The notes beneath the pieces were generated by a model, which saw only the letters and a list, made by a program, of their open reading frames with translations, was not told the DNA's origin and made no database searches. A stretch of DNA of 32,000 bases from positions 5,340,001 through 5,372,000 of the forward strand of contig CP104013.1 in NCBI GenBank assembly GCA_025839675.1, read 5' to 3'. This stretch comes from Candidatus Lokiarchaeum ossiferum. GTDB lineage: Archaea > Asgardarchaeota > Lokiarchaeia > Sigyniarchaeales > Promethearchaeaceae. The position numbers were made by a program, and so were the translations under genes. Below are positions 3,218 to 16,520 of this stretch, piece after piece. How positions within the stretch are numbered: position 1 is the stretch's first letter; each line of letters opens with the position of its first letter.

Positions 3218-3308
3218 AATTGGTTTCAACTATATTATATTATAATAAAAAGGTAGCAATTGGAACTTTAATAGTTTTAGGAGGCCAAAAATTTTCCGTG
3301 GATTAGCC

Positions 3309-3947
3309 CTAATTCAAGGCTTTGTCGCGACAATAATCTTTGATCGCTTCTATTCCCTCTTCAAGAATATCAATTTCTTTAGTGGGTAAATTGCAATTAT
3401 CCATCCTGATTTGAACAAGAGATTCATAGCGATGAAGATTTTCTAATTCAAAAATGGGATTATTTGATAAATTTAAAGATTTTAAATGAGAAAACGCACA
3501 ATCTGGTATTTTTGTGATATTGTTATATGATAAGTCCAAAAATTCCAAATTTTTTAATAATCCAAGTTCATAATATGATTCTAATTGGTTTTCAGATAAA
3601 TTTAAAGAGATTAATTTAGTCAAAGAAATCATTTGTTCTAAAGCAGACGATTTGAGCTGGTTTCCACTGAGATTTATAATTGTTGCATTTTGGCATCCAT
3701 CAATATTGCGGAGTTTTTTTATCCGGTTAGAAGGAACTTGAATTTTATTAAGGTGGGGAAAATTCCCAAACTGTCTGGGAATTAAGGCCAATCCAACAGA
3801 AATTAATTGTATTTCAATCACATGTCCATTTGAAACGCTATAATTGAATCCGAAAGAATTATCTAATATATTCATTATGCTTTGAATACTGCGCCTTTCG
3901 TTGACGTCTTTGATTAACTTCAATTTTAATTTGGGATTGAAAAACAT
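3309..3947 (-). CDS. leucine-rich repeat (LRR) protein, SDS22-like 22-residue repeats
   Basis: About 6 consecutive LxxLxLxxNxL units, e.g. LISLNLSENQLESYYELGLLKN / LEFLDLSYNNITKIPDCAFSH / LKSLNLSNNPIFELENL. The track start is TTG at 3956; ATG at 3947. Confidence 0.85.
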   Translation of the reverse strand: MFFNPKLKLKLIKDVNERRSIQSIMNILDNSFGFNYSVSNGHVIEIQLISVGLALIPRQFGNFPHLNKIQVPSNRIKKLRNIDGCQNATIINLSGNQLKSSALEQMISLTKLISLNLSENQLESYYELGLLKNLEFLDLSYNNITKIPDCAFSHLKSLNLSNNPIFELENLHRYESLVQIRMDNCNLPTKEIDILEEGIEAIKDYCRDKALN

Positions 3948-4259: not shown

Positions 4260-5141
4260 ATGAAAACACGTATAATTAATCTCGCGGGATTTTCATTGAT
4301 TGTGCTTTTATTGTCTAACACTCTAACTTCTGTCGATGCTGTCACAAATTTTCCAACTTGGGTGCCACAAAATACTGATATCGAAGATTTTACCTTACTA
4401 TGGAATGAAACCACTTATTCTGAAAATTTTATTTGTAGTGAAGCTGAAAATCTATCGGTTTATAGCCAAGTGTGGTATAGAAACAATTCACAAGACGAGA
4501 CGGTAAGTTTTATTGCATCGGCTATCACTGATTTAGATTTAGATATTCTAAATGAAAAGTTAAGCTGGCAGATGAATCTACTTGTTGCAATTGGTTTTCC
4601 TGAATTTACAGGTAAGACATCTTGGGATTTGTTTATTTTTATACTTAACCAAACTTATGGGGAAATGGGAGAAGTTACCAGTGAGCTTGCTAACTGGGAA
4701 GCTGCTTATGAGTGCAATACTACCGGGTCTATTTTCAACTATTTCATCATCGGTATGGTTGATGAGTCCAAAATGGCTCTTAGTTTTGCCCTTGAATTAA
4801 ATTCGAACTATTGGTGGACACTTTTGGATGATCAAATGGGACAAATAATAGGTGGGATTGTGTCGACATTATTGAAACTTGCGGCTTTTATTTCCACATT
4901 GGGAATTGAATGTCCCGAATCCAGCGGGGATCCTGCTGTTCCAGTTTCTCAAATTTCAAAAGGGGTGATTGAAGAATCGCAATACACCAGTCGGGAAGAT
5001 ATGGTCGATTTCAATTCAAAAATGGGCACTTTTATAAACCCAAAAGCCGCAATTCCAGGGTATTCTATTGGGATCATGGTTGGGACATTCCTTTTAATCT
5101 GTCCGATTTTGTTCGTTATTGAATTTAAGAAGAAACACTAA
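4260..5141 (+). CDS. secreted or surface protein with an N-terminal signal peptide and a C-terminal PGY-TM-KKKH anchor
   Basis: The N-terminus MKTRIINLAGFSLIVLLLSNTLTSVDA looks like a signal peptide. Several NxS/T sequons are present. The C-terminus is IPGYSIGIMVGTFLLICPILFVIEFKKKH (motif, hydrophobic helix, basic tail). Confidence 0.6.
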   Translation: MKTRIINLAGFSLIVLLLSNTLTSVDAVTNFPTWVPQNTDIEDFTLLWNETTYSENFICSEAENLSVYSQVWYRNNSQDETVSFIASAITDLDLDILNEKLSWQMNLLVAIGFPEFTGKTSWDLFIFILNQTYGEMGEVTSELANWEAAYECNTTGSIFNYFIIGMVDESKMALSFALELNSNYWWTLLDDQMGQIIGGIVSTLLKLAAFISTLGIECPESSGDPAVPVSQISKGVIEESQYTSREDMVDFNSKMGTFINPKAAIPGYSIGIMVGTFLLICPILFVIEFKKKH

Positions 5142-5192
5142 TAGATACAAATTTAAAGATTGGTTCTATTAAAAAAAATCGTGGCATCTTTC

Positions 5193-5204
5193 TTTTTTTT
5201 TTTT
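5193..5204 (+). terminator. oligo-T (T12) terminator candidate
   Basis: T12 run about 50 nt after the stop of 4260..5141. Confidence 0.4.
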
Positions 5205-5415
5205 CTCTACATTTGCCATAAAAATTCGTTTTTTTCCGCTTTTGCCACAAATTTTACCCGAATTATATCTAATATGTAATAATTGGTGGTGTAGACACAT
5301 ATATTATCACGAAAGAAGGCAATTTAGTGTATTAATATAATAACTTGAACATCTTTTCAAATAATTCAAGGAGTAGAAAGTTAAACACTTAAGTCCCCAA
5401 AAGTAAGGTATATCT

Positions 5416-8763: not shown

Positions 8764-9033
8764 ATGGCAGATAAAGTATGTACTGAATGTGGCGGGAAAA
8801 GCTTCCGAATTGTGTCTGATGAATGGATGAAACGAACTTTCCGATTTGTTGAGAAGGGTCAACTTAATATGTGCGATGGATGTGGTGCAAAATTCCTTGT
8901 GTGCCCTAAATGTGGTGATTTATTAACGCGTGTGCACCCTGCTTTAGAGAAATGGGAAGTTGATGATACTTGCAAATCCTGTGGCTATGTTGATAAAGAT
9001 ATAAAAGCCTGGGATGGTGTAAGTGCTCGATAA
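8764..9033 (+). CDS. small zinc-ribbon protein (4 x CxxC), paralog 1
   Basis: CTEC...CDGC...CPKC...CKSC gives four CxxC pairs, enough for two predicted Zn sites. It shares CGAK, C-KCG and L-RVH with the next gene. Confidence 0.65.
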   Translation: MADKVCTECGGKSFRIVSDEWMKRTFRFVEKGQLNMCDGCGAKFLVCPKCGDLLTRVHPALEKWEVDDTCKSCGYVDKDIKAWDGVSAR

Positions 9034-9099: not shown

Positions 9100-9378
9100 A
9101 TGGAAGATCAGTGTTGTGAAGTGTGTTGTGGAACTGGATTTGCAAAAGTACAAGATTCTATACTACTCTCCCACTACTCGTTTATAACCAAAGAAAATTT
9201 GTATTCTTGCAAGAAATGCGGAGCAAAATATACAAGTTGTAAAAAATGCGGGTATATTTTAAATCGAGTTCATATTTCTTTGGATATTTTTGATTTAAAA
9301 GTGATATGTCCTTCATGTGAGACCAAAGATAATGAACTCATCCTTTGGATTCAGAAAAATTCAGAAAAAAAACCTTGA
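9100..9378 (+). CDS. small zinc-ribbon protein (4 x CxxC), paralog 2
   Basis: CEVC...CKKC...CKKC...CPSC with the same spacing and the same conserved CGAK / KCG / RVH positions as 8764..9033. Confidence 0.65.
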   Translation: MEDQCCEVCCGTGFAKVQDSILLSHYSFITKENLYSCKKCGAKYTSCKKCGYILNRVHISLDIFDLKVICPSCETKDNELILWIQKNSEKKP

Positions 9379-9425: not shown

Positions 9426-10889
9426 CTAAAATACATTTGCTATTTTCAATTTGATCATCTGTTCCGCAGAAAGATCTGTAAATCCTTTTGATTCCATCAT
9501 TTCGATAAAAGATATTGATACATCATGAATCAGCATCTCCTGTATTTGCTGTAAGGTAATAGAGGTAAATTTATTTTTCATTTTTCTTACAAATGATGGT
9601 GTAGCATTGTGAATACAAAGTTTTTTTGCTTCAATTAGTTGGAAAGTAAATTCTAATTCTTTCAATTGTTTCAGGAAGTCAATACTCACATTATGAATTG
9701 CACATCTTTGAATTTCTTCTAATGTAGAACTGGGGAAACCTAATTCTCTAATGTTTCTGATATAATCCAGAGAAACATCATGAATACGGAGATTTATTAA
9801 ATCTTCAGTTGATATATTCGTGTATCCCATATCAAAAATACCTTGAATAAAATCTACTGAAACTCCATGAATGCACATTTTTACAAATGAATTAGCACTA
9901 ATATCTGAAAAACCGAATTTGTACATTTTTTTGACCAGTTCTGGGGTGCATCCATGTATTGAAAAGTCGATATATCGATTTATTGTGAGATCTTTAAATC
10001 CAACTTCATGAAATTTGGCGATATATTCTGGAGTTACATTGTGGATTGCCATTTTTTTCAAATTTGATAATGAAATATCAGTAAACCCTAAATCCTTCAA
10101 TTTGAAAAATGTTTCCATCTTTACATTATGAATTCTTAATTTCTTAATCTCAGAAAATTCAATATTTTCAAATCCTGCTTCTTTCAGTTGTCCAATGAAG
10201 GTAGGTTCAATTGAAAAGTTTTCTGCATCAATTAGATCTGTGATGCTTAGTTCTCCAACTCCTGATGCTTTCAGTGCCCTAACTTTTTCTGGGTTAACAT
10301 TATGTATACGCATTTTAACAATTTGATTCGGAGTTGGCTGATACCCAAGATCATTCAATTCATGAATATACTGTGGGGTCACATCATGAATCTGGAACTT
10401 CACTATTTGGGATGTAGTTAAATCAAATCCCAATTCAATCCATTTTTGAATAATTGCACTTTTAACCCCATGGATAGAGAATTTAACAAGTTCATCAAGT
10501 GAGATTGTTTTATATCCGAGATTATGGATTTCTTGTATGTATTCTAAACGAACTTGATGAATTATTGATTTCACCATTAAATCATCTGAAATATTAGTGT
10601 ATCCAAAACTATTCAAACCTTCTTTATATTCTGGTTTGACATGTTTAAGGATTAATTCCTTAATTATAGATAACGTTAATTCCGTTCGTTCTAAATTTTT
10701 TATCTCAACATAAAACTCTGCAGTTACAAAATCACTTACATTGTTGATCAAATTTTCAAATGATTCTCCTTGAAAATTTCGGCTTTGAAGGTATTCACGA
10801 TCCAGCACACGTAGTGCTTTCTCTGCATCTTCTGGTGAAATTTCTCCTGAAGCGACCTTTCCTAAAATATCTAATCTATTTTGTTCCAT
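9426..10889 (-). CDS. tandem-repeat protein, about 13 x 28-29 aa 'IH[NDG]V...G[FY]' units, unknown function
   Basis: Repeats are read directly, e.g. IHGVKSAIIQKWIELGFDLTTSQIVKFQ / IHDVTPQYIHELNDLGYQPTPNQIVKMR / IHNVTPEYIAKFHEVGFKDLTINRYIDFS. The N-terminal LGKVASGEISPEDAEKALRVL is a SHOCT-like helix. Confidence 0.75.
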   Translation of the reverse strand: MEQNRLDILGKVASGEISPEDAEKALRVLDREYLQSRNFQGESFENLINNVSDFVTAEFYVEIKNLERTELTLSIIKELILKHVKPEYKEGLNSFGYTNISDDLMVKSIIHQVRLEYIQEIHNLGYKTISLDELVKFSIHGVKSAIIQKWIELGFDLTTSQIVKFQIHDVTPQYIHELNDLGYQPTPNQIVKMRIHNVNPEKVRALKASGVGELSITDLIDAENFSIEPTFIGQLKEAGFENIEFSEIKKLRIHNVKMETFFKLKDLGFTDISLSNLKKMAIHNVTPEYIAKFHEVGFKDLTINRYIDFSIHGCTPELVKKMYKFGFSDISANSFVKMCIHGVSVDFIQGIFDMGYTNISTEDLINLRIHDVSLDYIRNIRELGFPSSTLEEIQRCAIHNVSIDFLKQLKELEFTFQLIEAKKLCIHNATPSFVRKMKNKFTSITLQQIQEMLIHDVSISFIEMMESKGFTDLSAEQMIKLKIANVF

Positions 10890-11186
10890 TTTTTACTCAC
10901 ATACCTTCAATCATTGTGGGGTTAGATGACACTGCCATCTATATTTGTTAGAAGCCTTGATGTCGGAGTAAAATTTATCCACCAATTCCTCGAACCAATG
11001 ATCGATTAAGAGAGTATCATCATTTTGAATATAAAAATGTTTAGCATTTCTATCAGAAATTAGTTCTATTTGATAGTAGGAATCATGGTAAGCATGTAAT
11101 TTATTTACTCAAATTTGGGTAAATTACCTTCATTTAGTTCTTAAAATTGAGTAATCTTTTTATATATTGTGAGTATTGATATTCTT

Positions 11187-11867
11187 ATGAGTAATTTATC
11201 TCTAGAATCTAATGAATCTCTGGCGCCATTACGCTCTTCAGAAACAAGTAAGAAAAGCAGAATAACATTAGACATCGCAGGTGCTGCAATTTTTAGTGCA
11301 CTTTCAGTTGTATTATCATTGTTAACTACCGAAATGTTACCACGCATGGCATGGGGAATTGCATATTTTGATCCTGTTTCAATTATTTGGTTAACAGCAT
11401 TCCTTGTTTTCGGATTTCGATGTGGTATCTTTACTGCAATTATTGGCTCTATTGGATTAATGTTTTTTGATCCAACACCATTTGTTGGTCCTGTTATGAA
11501 ATTTGTTGCTACAATTTGGTTAATGATAGTTCCTTATTTCATCATTCAACTTTCAAAAAGGCGAACTTTAACGGGTCAAGATATGAAAAAAAAGAAGTTT
11601 TATATTCAAAGCGCTTTGATTGCCTGGGGAATTCGATCCGTTGTAATGATTGCTTTGAATTATTTATACATTGCTTTCGTTTTTGGTGGGGTTGAGACTA
11701 TTCCATTCTATGATATGTCTTGGATTGGATTAGGGATGATAACATCAAATATTGCCATTATTATATCTGTATTTTTGTTAAATACCATTCAAACCATTGC
11801 AGATGTATTCCTTCCCTATTGGTTAATCTTTTCAACCAAAATTTATGATCATTTTCAAATTTATTAA
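11187..11867 (+). CDS. polytopic membrane protein (weak resemblance to the ECF-transporter S-component / substrate-capture type)
   Basis: About 5-6 hydrophobic segments. The first helix LDIAGAAIFSALSVVLSLL resembles S-component N-terminal helices, which is a weak match. The track start is GTG at 11169; ATG at 11187 (MSNLSLES). Confidence 0.55.
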   Translation: MSNLSLESNESLAPLRSSETSKKSRITLDIAGAAIFSALSVVLSLLTTEMLPRMAWGIAYFDPVSIIWLTAFLVFGFRCGIFTAIIGSIGLMFFDPTPFVGPVMKFVATIWLMIVPYFIIQLSKRRTLTGQDMKKKKFYIQSALIAWGIRSVVMIALNYLYIAFVFGGVETIPFYDMSWIGLGMITSNIAIIISVFLLNTIQTIADVFLPYWLIFSTKIYDHFQIY

Positions 11868-11927: not shown

Positions 11928-12785
11928 ATGATAGTAATGGGTCAAGAAAAGTTTGATGATATTGGGATTCCTTTATTTTATGTAGAACGAAGATATCCTA
12001 CTTCACGGGCCATTGAATTACATCCTGATTTAATTCCATTTTTAAAAACACGTGATCCTCCAAGAATAAATAAGGAAAGTCGGGAAGCTTTACTTCTTTA
12101 CAACTATTACGTAGCACAAGATTTATTTAATTTAACCATAGAATTTGAGAGAGATGTTGCCATTGTTCCTACACCGGTTATGCGTTATGCTTTCTTACAA
12201 CATTTAATCCATCCTAATTGTTCTATCATCGAGATTGGGACTGGTGCAAGTGCAATTATTGCCCTAATTGCAGCAAAATGTTTCAATGCTCAAGTATATG
12301 CAACAGAGATGGATCCTACCTACATTGAGTATGCAAAAAGAAATGTGAATGCAAATAAACTTGAAAATAAAATTCATGTGATCAATTCTCATGGAAAATT
12401 TCTTGATGGTGTTATTCCAGAAAATCTTAAAGTTGATTTTATTTTATCCAATCCTCCTTATTATGATAAAATATTATCCCCAAAAGTTCTTTGGGGTGGG
12501 AAAAAGCATGAATTAGTAGGAGAAGGTAGTCAAGGGGAAAATTTCATTATTTCAATGATTGAAGAAGGATGGAAATATCTAAAAACTCCTGGTTGTATCG
12601 CATTCATTATTCCAAAGACAAGAGTTGCTACTATGAATGTAATTGAAGAATTCCTTAATGAACAAGATATGGAATACGATATTATTGGAATTCTTGCAGG
12701 TAATCGGACAAGATACGTATTTAGGATCTATAAGAAATATTTTGACAGCTATTTTTCTGAATTTGATTCTAATAAAATAAGTTGA
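11928..12785 (+). CDS. SAM-dependent N6-adenine RNA methyltransferase, RlmF/METTL16-like
   Basis: Colinear with my recollection of E. coli RlmF. IVPTPVMRYAFLQHLI matches LCPPVPGRADYIHHLADLL. Motif I is IIEIGTGASAIIALIAA and motif IV is FILSNPPYY (NPPY). ELVGEGSQGENFIISMIEEG matches ELWCEGGEVTFIKKMIEES. Confidence 0.7.
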   Translation: MIVMGQEKFDDIGIPLFYVERRYPTSRAIELHPDLIPFLKTRDPPRINKESREALLLYNYYVAQDLFNLTIEFERDVAIVPTPVMRYAFLQHLIHPNCSIIEIGTGASAIIALIAAKCFNAQVYATEMDPTYIEYAKRNVNANKLENKIHVINSHGKFLDGVIPENLKVDFILSNPPYYDKILSPKVLWGGKKHELVGEGSQGENFIISMIEEGWKYLKTPGCIAFIIPKTRVATMNVIEEFLNEQDMEYDIIGILAGNRTRYVFRIYKKYFDSYFSEFDSNKIS

Positions 12786-13099
12786 TCATTTTCATCATAT
12801 TATCAAGAAATAATTTTTCTATTCATTTTTTTTTGAAGTTTTAATTGATATTTTCAAAAAAAGAGTCAAATCTTCAAATAATAATGTGGGAATAGAAATA
12901 TTTCCTAAAGCTTTATAATTTTTTGAGAAAATTTCTATCCTATCAATATGTTTTGATCAAAATTTTGGAAAATACTATGTACTTTTTTGCTAATGTTCCA
13001 AATTCATATTAAATTAATTCAAATCGAAACAAATTATTCTTAATTTTCACGGGAAATCTAATAAAATACATTTAAATTATTCAATCGCCTTTTTTGAGT

Positions 13100-13999
13100 A
13101 TGGGAATTTTTAGTTTACTTAGAAGAAAAACTAAACAAAAATCCGTATTTTTAGGATTGGATAATTCGGGAAAATCCACAATCATATCCTTTTTGAAAGA
13201 AGGTAAATTTGTCGAACATACTCCAACAATGGGAAAAGATTTGCAGAAATTGGAAATCGATGGGACCCGGTTTTTGTTGTTCGATATGGGAGGGCAATCA
13301 CATTTTAGAAAAATGTGGACTGGTGAAATGAAAGATTCAAAATGTGTAGTTTTCGTAATTGATGCTGCTGATCCTGATCGTTTTAATGAATCTAAATCCG
13401 AATTACAAAAAGTTTTACCTTTAATTGCTGGAAAAGATATGAAATTACTAATTCTTGCTAATAAGTCTGATAAACGTAATGCAATACCTTTAGATCAACT
13501 CATTGATATTTTCGAACTTAGTAATCTTCCAAATTTTGAAATAATGTCCATTTCTGCCAAAACTGGACTAAATATGGCTGATGCTTTTGTGAAATTCTAT
13601 TCGTTATTAACAGGAAAAATGTTAAAAAAAAATACAGTGACTCAAGCAATCTCTATTTTTGATCCAAGCGGTCTTCCCATAATTACTCGATCCAAATCAG
13701 ATCATGATGATAGAGATATATTGGAAGGTGGTTTTATAACTGCAATTACTCATTTTGGTAAAATGAAAAATAATGCAAATTGTATCAAATTCGAAAGTGA
13801 AAATGATGGTGTTTATGTCATAAAAAGAACAGAGAATTATATTGGGGCTTTATTATGGGATGAAAATTTGGACATTCCAATTGATGATACTGAAAGTGCC
13901 TTGGATGATCTTTTAAATCATTTAGAATCTTCTCTCAAGTTTAAAGATCACGAAGAAGTTGCATATTATGTAAGTCAGTATTGCACAAACATGATATAA
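13100..13999 (+). CDS. Arf/Sar-family small GTPase with an extra C-terminal domain of about 115 aa (Roadblock/longin-like by pattern)
   Basis: G1 is VFLGLDNSGKSTI (Sar1: LFLGLDNAGKTTL). G2 is TPTMG, G3 is LFDMGGQ, G4 is NKSD and G5 is SAK. VVFVIDAADPDRFNESKSEL matches Sar1 IVFLVDAADPERFDEARVEL. The N-terminus is MGIFSLLRRK. Residues from about 183 to the end form an additional alpha/beta module. The track start is TTG at 13094; ATG at 13100. Confidence 0.9.
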   Translation: MGIFSLLRRKTKQKSVFLGLDNSGKSTIISFLKEGKFVEHTPTMGKDLQKLEIDGTRFLLFDMGGQSHFRKMWTGEMKDSKCVVFVIDAADPDRFNESKSELQKVLPLIAGKDMKLLILANKSDKRNAIPLDQLIDIFELSNLPNFEIMSISAKTGLNMADAFVKFYSLLTGKMLKKNTVTQAISIFDPSGLPIITRSKSDHDDRDILEGGFITAITHFGKMKNNANCIKFESENDGVYVIKRTENYIGALLWDENLDIPIDDTESALDDLLNHLESSLKFKDHEEVAYYVSQYCTNMI

Positions 14000-14063
14000 T
14001 GTAAATAAGGCTAAAATTTCATCTTTTTTTTATAAATGATCAATATCAATAAGGTAAAACATT

Positions 14064-14564
14064 ATGGCAATGCTAATTTCAAAATCGATAATTACAAGTT
14101 TAGGTGGATATAGTGGTTCTAATCCAAAAATTCTTAAAGTTTTCCCCAGTTCTCCAGATTTACTCAATGAAGATGTTTTAGAAATATGTTTACCCACAGG
14201 AGCTGTGCCAAATGAATTCTTTTTAAAGGAATATCAAAAAACTAAAATTTTGATTTATACCTTTGAAATCGAAAAGGAAGAAGAACGTAATGATTTAGGA
14301 TCCATTAGTTTTGGAATTGGATCAGAAGTTGAAGTAAATAATCTGAAATCTATGATTTTATTAATTTTTAATTTTCTCAGAAGAAATAATATTCTTTCAT
14401 TTCTAATTTTAGAAAATGCTATGCCTGAAATGATAGATGCTTTAAATAACGAGGGTAAAATTCAATTTACTGATTCATATTGTATGGATATCAAGCGAGA
14501 ACTTAAAGCAAATAACATTAAGTTAGAGAAAGTAAGTAGGAAACGTAGAGGTGGAATGATTTAG
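14064..14564 (+). CDS. soluble 166-aa protein, unknown function
   Basis: ORF with no hydrophobic segments. Its stop TAG overlaps the GTG start of the next gene by 1 nt (TAGTG). No family is recognised with confidence. Confidence 0.6.
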   Translation: MAMLISKSIITSLGGYSGSNPKILKVFPSSPDLLNEDVLEICLPTGAVPNEFFLKEYQKTKILIYTFEIEKEEERNDLGSISFGIGSEVEVNNLKSMILLIFNFLRRNNILSFLILENAMPEMIDALNNEGKIQFTDSYCMDIKRELKANNIKLEKVSRKRRGGMI

Positions 14565-15217
14565 TGGCTACTTTTGAAATTGTCGTCAGGAACATATCTT
14601 CTATTTTAGGTTTACTTATATTACTCTTGCTACTAGTATTCCTTTATTTTAGGAATTTTAAGGATTTTAAAGAGTATGGTGAATGGAATTGGACACGGGT
14701 AGTTCTTTCTTTAGGAATTTTCATTAATTTCCTTGATCGACTTTTGTTTGTGATATTTTACATCTTTGATTGGAAATTTACCACAGATAGCATGATGGCG
14801 GATTCAATTTATGCCGAACCGTATTTATCTTATCTTGGTATTTTGAAAGGATATCTTGTTGTATTTGGGGCATTTTATGTGTTATATTTAAATCAGAAGG
14901 ATGAAATGTTAATTGCTCCAGTATTGCTTTATTCAGGTGCTCTAGTGCTATATTATACTGCCCAAGTCATCTTATATCATTATATCTTTATTTTTTGTGC
15001 AGGTGTAATCACTTTATTCCTTTTAAATGAGGCTGGATGGAGTATGAAAGATAATAATGCAATGGGCCTAGGTCTAATGTACGTTTTCATTTTTATTGGA
15101 GGAGTTATACCAAATGCGGTTGTTTCAAATATAATTCGTTTAGTCGCTTATCTTATTGGATTCACAATCATAACTGGAATATTCAAGATATTTAAAAACA
15201 AAGAGGAAGAAGAATAA
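14564..15217 (+). CDS. integral membrane protein, about 7 hydrophobic segments, unknown function (paralog A)
   Basis: Seven hydrophobic stretches by eye and a charged C-terminal tail, KNKEEEE. The GTG start overlaps the upstream stop, and its own stop overlaps the next ATG (TAATG). Confidence 0.7.
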   Translation: MATFEIVVRNISSILGLLILLLLLVFLYFRNFKDFKEYGEWNWTRVVLSLGIFINFLDRLLFVIFYIFDWKFTTDSMMADSIYAEPYLSYLGILKGYLVVFGAFYVLYLNQKDEMLIAPVLLYSGALVLYYTAQVILYHYIFIFCAGVITLFLLNEAGWSMKDNNAMGLGLMYVFIFIGGVIPNAVVSNIIRLVAYLIGFTIITGIFKIFKNKEEEE

Positions 15218-15879
15218 TGGTTTCAGAACAGATTTTAATGTTTGTAGAAATAGGAAATTCGCTATTTGGTTTTATTGGGATCTACTTAGCAATTAAACAG
15301 TGGAAAAAGTATAAAAATCCTGCTGATATATTCGTAGTATTAATAAACCTTCTTGCAGTTGGAGCTGTATTATTTTCAGCGTTCACATTCTTACTTATTG
15401 GGTATTTTCCAGAAATCAATCTTGCTTTCAAGATAGGTAATCTTCCTATTGAGTGGATCTTTAAGATCGGGATAAGTATGATGTATATGATATTCATGGT
15501 ATATCTGTTAGAATGGAAATTTCTTTATACTGTGCCCTTCATTGTTGGGTTATACTTTTTCTTATATGGATTTCATACTGGAAATGAAAATATCCTCAAT
15601 ATTTATCTTGGGACAATAATTTTTTCGGCTATATGGTTGATTTATAATGCAATCAAGAATAGGAGTGGATTATCTTTAGGGCTTTTTATTGTAGCTGTTT
15701 TTTATGCTATTAGTACCCTTATTAGTGATTTTCTATTTTTATACTATTTATTCCGATATTTAATGTCTATTTCACTGATTCTTGGAATTAATGGATGGTT
15801 TGAAGAAAAAATACTATATAACCGAAAAGAAGAAAAGAAAATCCAAAATACATGGATTGCTCGAGCCACCAGATCTTAA
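15217..15879 (+). CDS. integral membrane protein, about 7 hydrophobic segments, unknown function (paralog B)
   Basis: Similar length (220 vs 217 aa) and topology to paralog A. Both share a K-rich loop after TM1, an [DE]WKF motif, a GLxLGL motif and a charged tail, NRKEEKK. Confidence 0.7.
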   Translation: MVSEQILMFVEIGNSLFGFIGIYLAIKQWKKYKNPADIFVVLINLLAVGAVLFSAFTFLLIGYFPEINLAFKIGNLPIEWIFKIGISMMYMIFMVYLLEWKFLYTVPFIVGLYFFLYGFHTGNENILNIYLGTIIFSAIWLIYNAIKNRSGLSLGLFIVAVFYAISTLISDFLFLYYLFRYLMSISLILGINGWFEEKILYNRKEEKKIQNTWIARATRS

Positions 15880-16058: not shown

Positions 16059-16520
16059 TTAATTTGGACTAATTTTATCCAAATCTGACAAATCCAATCC
16101 TGCACCAATATCTTCAGGCATTTCTGATAAGAATTCGTCTAAAATATTACGTAATTCATCTCCAGATCGTTTTAATACAAGGCGAATTAACCCCAAGTTG
16201 ACATCAACATCAGAGATTAAACATAGTACCCCTTTCCCACAAGAAGCAGCAAAAATCTTCCCTCCTTCAAATTCAGAAGTGACGATCTGTAATGCTCCTA
16301 ATTCTAAATTTCTTCCTTGTTCTTCTGATGCGCAGAAAACTGCACTTGCGATGGCTCCAATGCCATCAACATCCATTGGAATATATGAGAACTTGGAAAC
16401 ATGAGCAATTGTTAAACCGGTTCGATCAACCAAAATGACCTTTTTGATACCGGATTCGGATTTAATAATTTTACTGAGGATTACATTAAATGATTTAGTT
16501 GAAAGTGCCATAATTTTCAT
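16059..16520 (-). CDS. Roadblock/LC7 (MglB-like) domain protein
   Basis: GIKKVILVDRTGLTIAHV...GAIASAVFCASEEQGRNLELGALQIVTSEFEGGKIFAASCGKGVLCLISDVDVNLGLIRLVLKR matches the Robl_LC7 pattern (xxVxlvDxdGlxia ... ANlGlvr). It also has an acidic C-terminal tail. Confidence 0.85.
   Translation of the reverse strand: MKIMALSTKSFNVILSKIIKSESGIKKVILVDRTGLTIAHVSKFSYIPMDVDGIGAIASAVFCASEEQGRNLELGALQIVTSEFEGGKIFAASCGKGVLCLISDVDVNLGLIRLVLKRSGDELRNILDEFLSEMPEDIGAGLDLSDLDKISPN

Follow-up and report, generated by a model that had tools for sequence, protein, structure and literature searches.

What do two overlapping genes for multi-spanning membrane proteins do downstream of a small GTPase in an archaeon? 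The question is raised by a 32,000-nucleotide (nt) stretch of Candidatus Lokiarchaeum ossiferum (lineage Promethearchaeota, former Lokiarchaeota; the whole stretch is hereinafter designated the window), whose open reading frame (ORF) listing contains four consecutive plus-strand genes, designated G, X, A and B. G (13094-13999) encodes an Arf-like small GTPase of about 300 amino acids (aa), X (14064-14564) encodes a 166-aa soluble alpha/beta protein of an unannotated family, and A (14564-15217) and B (15217-15879) encode predicted seven-transmembrane (7-TM) proteins of 217 and 220 aa with N-out/C-in orientation; A starts with GTG and has a short acidic C-tail, whereas B has a long basic one. 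The protein sequence of B matches L. ossiferum NEF87_004544, encoded on a 6.04-Mb contig, at 100% identity. An earlier, sequence-only reading of this DNA had singled out A and B as a pair downstream of the GTPase. Its coordinates for the two ORFs hold exactly and the upstream gene does encode a GTPase (Pfam Arf, E = 8e-37), but A does not directly follow it: X, the most tightly linked partner of the A-B pair, lies between them and had been overlooked. We rate the locus as a small-GTPase module with dedicated membrane partners, built from unannotated families; our preferred reading, tentative at a probability of about 0.45, takes A and B to be a membrane platform on which X and the Arf-like GTPase dock.

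Comparative gene order indicates that the A-B pair is genuinely linked to the small GTPase, as the sequence-only reading had proposed from the window: the association recurs in 12 full modules with unrelated flanks and two or three gene orders. These modules are located in the window, the loci L001, L004, L006, L010, L011, L090 and L093, and, as two copies each, L009 and L091; L012 carries a further, partial module. X lies directly upstream of A in all modules and an X-family hidden Markov model (HMM) finds its match in every one; the order X-A-B is invariant, and G is located within a few hundred bases on either side. The order G-X-A-B of the window is found in its close relative L001, in L004 (where B is just 30% identical), in L006, L011 and L093, while X-A-B-G is found in L010, in L090, in L012 (where X is cut by the contig end) and in both of the divergent copies in L009 (also L007 and L008). 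The X/A and A/B junctions are overlaps or gaps of at most 2 nt in every module checked. Two whole modules lie side by side in L009 (2287-8410, divergent) and in L091 (3655-9721, convergent), which points to duplication of the entire four-gene unit.

The association is also specific to one kind of Arf-like protein. In a metagenome scan with the G alignment, four of 80 Arf-like loci matched G over its full length, thus including its C-terminal domain, and only these four encode orthologues of G; three of these four lie on long enough contigs, and all three carry X, A and B, none of which was found at the 76 generic Arf loci of the scan. Over the 12 modules, the four proteins diverge in parallel: their identity matrices correlate (Mantel r 0.66-0.88, p = 2e-4). 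Judged by their named members, the module families are restricted to the Loki lineage. A profile scan of genome contigs returned nothing with the A alignment and two loci with a B sub-alignment. One of the two is L005 (439-1134), on a Promethearchaeum metagenome-assembled contig on which a B C-tail lies on the strand opposite a truncated G, followed by X; this arrangement is probably an assembly chimera or an inversion and was left out of the comparison. One divergent locus, L092 (4499-5675, plus strand), has an overlapping X-B pair only, beside the gene of a P-type ATPase, and within 5 kb neither A nor a GTPase is encoded; its retention of X and B suggests that X-B may be the core of the module.

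To what extent are A and B related to each other? Pairwise comparison gives no significant answer (BLASTP E = 0.58; Smith-Waterman and global alignment z-scores of 1-2.5 relative to shuffled sequences), and shallow three-sequence profiles of the two proteins reach an hhalign probability of just 0.5%. A word-indexed protein search gave only two or three close homologues of A and B, and a profile search a few more. We therefore collected A-type orthologues via genomic context, and B-family members by exhaustive HMMER search, which gave 53 representative clusters at E<=1e-3, mostly of 205-230 aa and matching end to end. With these deeper families, the A profile (seven sequences) aligns with the B profile (35 sequences) at an hhalign probability of 97.6% (E = 3.9e-12) over 186 collinear columns, which join A 22-217 to B 19-208; extending the A family to ten sequences gives 97.2% (E = 3e-11). 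Reversed-profile controls stay at probabilities of at most 2% (E 0.02-0.09). A plain B-family HMM also matches every A-type ORF with E values from 7e-9 to 3e-3 (6e-6 for A of the window). The family alignments thus indicate that A and B are genuine, old and very distant paralogues sharing the same architecture, which bears out the duplication proposed in the sequence-only reading. Two of the three motifs then cited in its favour, the lysine-rich loop that follows TM1 and the xLGL motif with which TM6 begins, occupy aligned positions in the two proteins. The third, [DE]WKF, is a coincidental match: the EWKF of B aligns with NQKDE of A, and the DWKF of A sits in outside loop 2, is found in Lokiarchaeum only and is not conserved across the A family. 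That the two proteins form a heterodimer we infer only from their obligate pairing.

A predicted 7-TM, N-out/C-in topology common to A and B is supported by three concurring lines of evidence. Hydropathy gives seven hydrophobic segments in each protein, in agreement with the earlier count by eye. An AlphaFold2 (AF2) model of B, built from a five-sequence alignment, contains seven long helices (2-31, 35-63, 79-97, 103-121, 124-148, 151-168 and 173-200) followed by a C-terminal helix; its predicted local distance difference test score (pLDDT) of 49.5 leaves the secondary structure usable and the fold of low confidence. The distribution of positive charges is family-wide: loops 1, 3, 5 and the C-tail together hold 13.0 lysines and arginines per protein in the B family (35 sequences) vs 0.8 in the N-terminus and loops 2, 4 and 6, and the corresponding values are 10.0 and 1.5 in the A family (ten sequences).

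Conservation is concentrated on the predicted cytoplasmic side. In the B family, the highest values are those of loop 5 (2.98 bits), the C-tail (2.49), TM4 (2.24), loop 1 (2.14) and loop 3 (2.03), whereas the outside loops, which make up a short and variable external face, reach only 1.06-1.42 bits; in the A family, loops 3 and 5 each reach about 3.0 bits. TM4, which opens with a YxLP motif, is the only helix that matches the cytoplasmic loops in conservation. The helices hold no conserved residue that is polar or charged: most of the 30 best-conserved positions are F, Y, P, G, L or I, and N34, K147, N148, S150 and the D/E/K/N residues of the tail all lie in cytoplasmic segments. Cytoplasmic motifs of A are R-x-[FIL]-[KR]-[DEQ]-[FY]-K-E...N-[YW]-x-R in loop 1, N-[QR]-x-[DE] in loop 3 and K-D-N-x-x-L-G in loop 5. 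The C-tail of B carries the motif G-x-N-G-W-x-[DE]-x-K-x-[FL]-Y-[DN]-R-x4-K-I-Q-N-T-W-I, wherein W213 is invariant; A is without this long conserved tail. Within the B family, TM1-loop-TM2 shows weak similarity to TM5-loop-TM6 (hhalign 59%, E = 9e-5, 40 columns), and comparison of the N- and C-terminal halves, made as a check for a PQ-loop/SWEET-type 3+1+3 repeat, gives a weak 37%. An ancient internal duplication, with a K-N-x-[ND]-type motif in both loops, is possible.

Searches for known relatives of A and B are consistent with the earlier remark that neither carries a recognisable transporter signature: no transporter, enzyme or receptor match was found in Pfam, NCBIfam or the PDB sequences. 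The best Pfam E value for either protein is 0.23, and NCBIfam gives no match. The 35 B-family members yield no consistent Pfam match, only scattered single ones at E>=0.008 to unrelated domains of unknown function, and the best E value of the B-family profile against PDB sequences is 0.33. Rhodopsin-like and other G-protein-coupled receptors (GPCRs), PAQR/HlyIII, PQ-loop/SWEET, Yip1, PRA1 and transporter profiles in Pfam and NCBIfam show no significant match to A or B. A Foldseek search of the PDB with the AF2 model of B, which is poor, gave no match at E<=0.001; the catenins, TRPV channels and designed helical bundles that it listed were dismissed as meaningless.

The GTPase itself opens with an amphipathic helix, continues with a G domain (residues ~7-170) and ends in a conserved C-terminal alpha/beta domain of about 125 aa, which is present in all orthologues. 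Its Pfam Arf match scores 126.8 bits at a cutoff of 22.3, and the GLDNSGKST, DMGGQ and NKSD motifs are invariant across six orthologues. The N-terminus, MGIFSLLRRKTK, has a hydrophobic moment of 0.55, and an amphipathic start with Met-Gly is conserved in the orthologues. By profile, motifs and this N-terminal helix, G belongs to the Arf family. Its best PDB sequence matches are 8oun, 8oum, 8oul and 8ouk (labelled 'GTP-binding protein' or 'Arf GTPase'), which we take to be Asgard Arf structures; Arf, Sar1 and Arl come next. The Pfam SRPRB profile also matches the G domain (E = 5e-7), and the G-alpha profile matches the switch region below threshold (E = 2.6e-7). The C-terminal domain gives weak matches to Clat_adaptor_s (E = 0.052), Fuz_longin_1 (0.12) and LAMTOR3/MP1 (~0.7). 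An assignment of G to the Rag/Gtr GTPases, whose architecture it resembles, is not supported: the Gtr1_RagA profile does not match G of the window and is faint in two relatives only, and the C-terminal domain matches LAMTOR3/MP1 no better than E~0.7. In L011, a stand-alone paralogue of the C-terminal domain is encoded right after B (3238-3708, plus strand; HMM E = 7e-26), which hints that this domain works by pairing with a like domain.

The nature of X is less readily assigned from its sequence. The X family has no significant match in Pfam or among PDB sequences, the nearest being uDENN at E = 0.086 in one of six members, and an AF2 model from the single sequence is unusable (pLDDT 34). We considered whether X or the C-terminal domain of G could be a roadblock/longin domain pairing with a Roadblock/LC7 (MglB-like) protein whose gene is the convergent neighbour of the module (16059-16520, minus strand; Pfam Robl_LC7 E = 2e-9). 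This idea is unsupported by mutual profile similarity: the hhalign probability is below 1% for X vs the C-terminal domain, for X vs Roadblock and for the C-terminal domain vs Roadblock. In the window and in L001, its close relative, the Roadblock gene adjoins the module, but no other module has it alongside; it was accordingly rejected as a module member, and its protein, which the sequence-only reading had named for complex modelling, probably lies outside the module core. The Roadblock proteins of the window and L001 (3694-4146, minus strand) are 100% identical in amino acid sequence, barring a three-residue N-terminal extension. As the module proteins of the same two loci are 75-92% identical, the Roadblock protein seems to be under unusually strong constraint.

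A further accessory is a domain resembling a Zn ribbon, of the pattern CPxC, ~30 residues, CxH and Y[IV]DRNFxVR, for which Pfam has no match. Five family clusters (P0007, P0026, P0039, P0052 and P0053) have it fused to the B C-tail, as in L090 (1159-2097); in L091 (3-536, minus strand) it is joined to an X-like domain, and L006 encodes it in a separate protein of 283 aa (4371-5222) immediately ahead of the module. The fusions place the B tail and X in one cytoplasmic context.

How the four genes are expressed can be read in part from the DNA. X and A overlap by 1 nt, the TAG stop of X sharing its last base with the GTG start of A (TAGTG, 14562-14566), and A and B likewise overlap by 1 nt, with TAA and ATG (TAATG, 15215-15219). 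Shine-Dalgarno-like sequences, GAGGTGG at 14548 for A and AGAGGAAG at 15202 for B, lie 12-16 nt upstream of the starts. The family alignment indicates that the GTG start of A is genuine, because relatives carry ATG there and the first 76 residues are conserved. One public gene call of A in L. ossiferum (P0003) is 141 aa long and begins at Met77, and so lacks the first two helices (window 14564-14794), presumably because the true start is GTG. For G, the true start is likely ATG 13100 (MGIFSLLRRK...) and not TTG 13094; a TTTAAAT-like box (~13066-13075) lies about 30 nt before this ATG, and T-runs follow the stop codon of B. Between G and X, a T8 run is followed by TTTATAAAT (14024-14037, plus strand, by direct sequence reading), which may represent a terminator of G and, ahead of X-A-B, a TATA-like box. 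G and X-A-B may thus be separate, near-leaderless transcription units, which fits the variable position of G before or after X-A-B in other genomes.

In the docking-platform reading, A and B would assemble into a heteromeric 7-TM platform whose cytoplasmic face combines loops 1, 3 and 5 from each protein with the long basic C-tail of B. This face would dock soluble X and, with or through X, would dock G, which would add its Arf-type N-terminal amphipathic helix and its C-terminal alpha/beta domain. The module would in this way fix a GTPase switch at a defined membrane site and would probably control its nucleotide state. The conserved cytoplasmic loops and tail, the lack of conserved polar residues in the helices and the minimal external face together are more in keeping with a platform than with a transporter or a ligand receptor. 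The heteromer, the docking of X and G at its cytoplasmic side and the way in which regulation would run are all inferred, and several observations weigh against this reading. No profile similarity was detected between X, the C-terminal domain of G and the Roadblock neighbour, which leaves the idea that they pair as roadblock or longin domains do without support. The model of B is of low confidence and has no Foldseek match, so that a known fold, such as that of a transporter or an enzyme, may yet be found. G seems, from the DNA signals, to have a promoter and terminator of its own, the L092 pair has no GTPase nearby, and the correlated divergence of the four proteins is expected from shared descent alone.

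A less probable reading, but one to be taken seriously, reverses the roles: A and B would be the effector, a small channel, transporter, lipid-handling or membrane-shaping machine that is switched by the GTPase, with X as adaptor. The constant pairing of two polytopic 7-TM proteins, the conservation of TM4 and of F/Y/P/G positions in the helices, the weak internal repeat (hhalign 59%), as found in some small transporters, and the P-type ATPase gene adjoining the X-B pair in L092 all suit this view, whereas the absence of a transporter or enzyme match in Pfam, NCBIfam and PDB sequences, and the location of the strongest conservation in cytoplasmic loops and tail with no conserved polar or charged helix residue, argue against it. 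Another interpretation, which we consider unlikely, is a lineage-specific Asgard receptor-G protein system, in which the heteromeric 7-TM pair, together with adaptor X, would sense an external or membrane cue and serve as receptor and nucleotide-exchange platform for the Arf-like GTPase, by independently evolved GPCR-like logic. The predicted topology is that of GPCRs, the conserved intracellular loops and C-tail correspond to the regions with which GPCRs contact G proteins, and the partner is Arf-like with a sub-threshold G-alpha match at its switch region. Yet the outward-facing parts, loops and N-terminus alike, are very short and little conserved and offer no obvious ligand site, no 7-TM receptor family in Pfam shows similarity, X is left unexplained and there is no G-beta/gamma.

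Two other explanations carry far less weight. The grouping of a GTPase of the Arf type with membrane proteins and a small alpha/beta partner recalls SR-beta, itself an Arf-like GTPase, which at the translocon is associated with the SRX domain, longin-like, of SR-alpha, and the SRPRB match of the G domain points the same way; a targeting or insertion device of this kind is nevertheless improbable, as the SRPRB match is far weaker than the Arf match, A and B have no similarity to Sec or YidC components, and occurrence in one archaeal lineage with duplicates within a genome does not suit a housekeeping machine. Least credible of all is the view that no functional link exists, the gene order being merely inherited and the similarity of A and B compositional. 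The window and L001 do share their whole neighbourhood, which renders synteny between these two uninformative, and the pairwise similarity of A and B is not significant; this view is largely refuted by the recurrence of the module with unrelated flanks, two or three gene orders and duplicate copies, by the 76 generic Arf loci without X-A-B, and by a forward profile match (E = 4e-12) that the reversed controls fail to reproduce.

Among known systems, the closest functional analogues of the putative docking platform are eukaryotic membrane platforms of small GTPases, namely the lysosomal Rag-Ragulator-SLC38A9, Yip1-Yif1 and Sys1-Arfrp1, none of which is a sequence relative. Like Rag/Gtr GTPases with Ragulator/EGO and SLC38A9, the module combines a GTPase whose G domain is followed by a C-terminal alpha/beta domain of dimerisation type, soluble alpha/beta partners of small size and a polytopic membrane protein of its own, the cytoplasmic tail of which engages the GTPase in the SLC38A9 system; a Roadblock gene is also nearby in Lokiarchaeum. 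By contrast, the G domain is Arf-like rather than Rag-like, the roadblock/longin nature of X and of the C-terminal domain is putative, and A and B, unlike SLC38A9 and unrelated to it, are a paralogous pair of 7-TM proteins. Yip1 and Yif1, which like PRA1 and Sys1 are membrane receptors for Rab- and Arf-family GTPases, are a paralogous multi-pass membrane pair that forms a heteromer and binds small GTPases at a specific membrane, and in this respect they resemble the proposed A-B heteromer. Yip1-family proteins, however, have five TM helices and a long cytosolic N-terminal domain, whereas A and B have seven and the conserved tail is C-terminal, and the Pfam Yip1 profile matches neither A nor B nor any of the 35 family members. 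GPCRs with heterotrimeric G proteins share the seven-helix N-out/C-in topology, the conserved intracellular loops and C-tail, and a GTPase partner from the family (Arf-like) closest to G-alpha, but are unrelated in sequence and differ from the module in its minimal external surface, its small GTPase and X in place of G-alpha-beta-gamma, and its obligate paralogous pair.

Closer in phylogeny, Asgard ArfR/AArf proteins share with G the N-terminal Met-Gly amphipathic helix and the Arf G motifs (10.1101/2024.02.28.582541; PMC11914678). The characterised ArfRs are single-domain proteins of 160-220 aa, proteins with extra domains having been set aside (10.1101/2024.02.28.582541; PMC11914678); the G subfamily differs from them in its extra C-terminal domain and its obligate X-A-B neighbours. 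Asgard ArfR proteins bind membranes via the N-terminal helix, without membrane specificity in yeast (10.1101/2024.02.28.582541), and in neither paper do the words 'transmembrane', 'operon' or 'neighbo(u)r' occur. A conserved Asgard operon described by Liu et al. comprises a LAMTOR1-like Roadblock protein, a Rab-like GTPase and a DENN protein (10.1101/2020.10.19.343400). It likewise couples a small GTPase with putative regulators, and one X member has a weak uDENN match; unlike this operon, with its Rab-like GTPase and no membrane proteins, the module has an Arf-like G, and its X, of about 165 aa, is not a demonstrable DENN protein. The Asgard literature examined, with its ArfR/AArf GTPases, GTPase-longin/roadblock fusions and the Roadblock-Rab-DENN operon, contained no prior description of the module or of a membrane-protein partner, although coverage was incomplete and novelty is unproven.

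An upstream ECF-S-like membrane protein (11169-11867) and a methyltransferase (11928-12785) were rejected as module parts, since neither occurs beside other modules. Further upstream, a 487-aa protein (9426-10889, minus strand) consists almost entirely of ~35-residue repeats with an 'IHNV/IHGV...' motif behind a SHOCT-like N-terminus and has no convincing Pfam match. Two tandem paralogous proteins of about 90 aa (8764-9033 and 9100-9378, plus strand) each contain several CxxC pairs and are zinc-ribbon-like; the HMM of the module's Zn-ribbon-like domain does not match them.

Asgard archaea encode very many eukaryote-like small GTPases, whose partners and membrane targets are essentially unknown. 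According to Tran et al., small GTPase genes of MK-D1 are generally not in operons with regulators (PMC10933270), and GTPases therefore cannot be matched to partners in that way. The conserved module described here names three candidate partners for one Arf-like subfamily, two of them integral membrane proteins, and defines three unannotated families (A/B, X and the C-terminal domain of G) plus an accessory Zn-ribbon-like domain. Were the unlikely receptor-G protein interpretation true, A and B would represent the first case in prokaryotes of polytopic membrane proteins devoted to a small GTPase, and the module a possible model for the pre-eukaryotic coupling of membrane-identity cues to Arf-type switches. 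L. ossiferum is available in enrichment culture, and whether dedicated membrane receptors position or regulate an archaeal Arf-type switch becomes a testable question.

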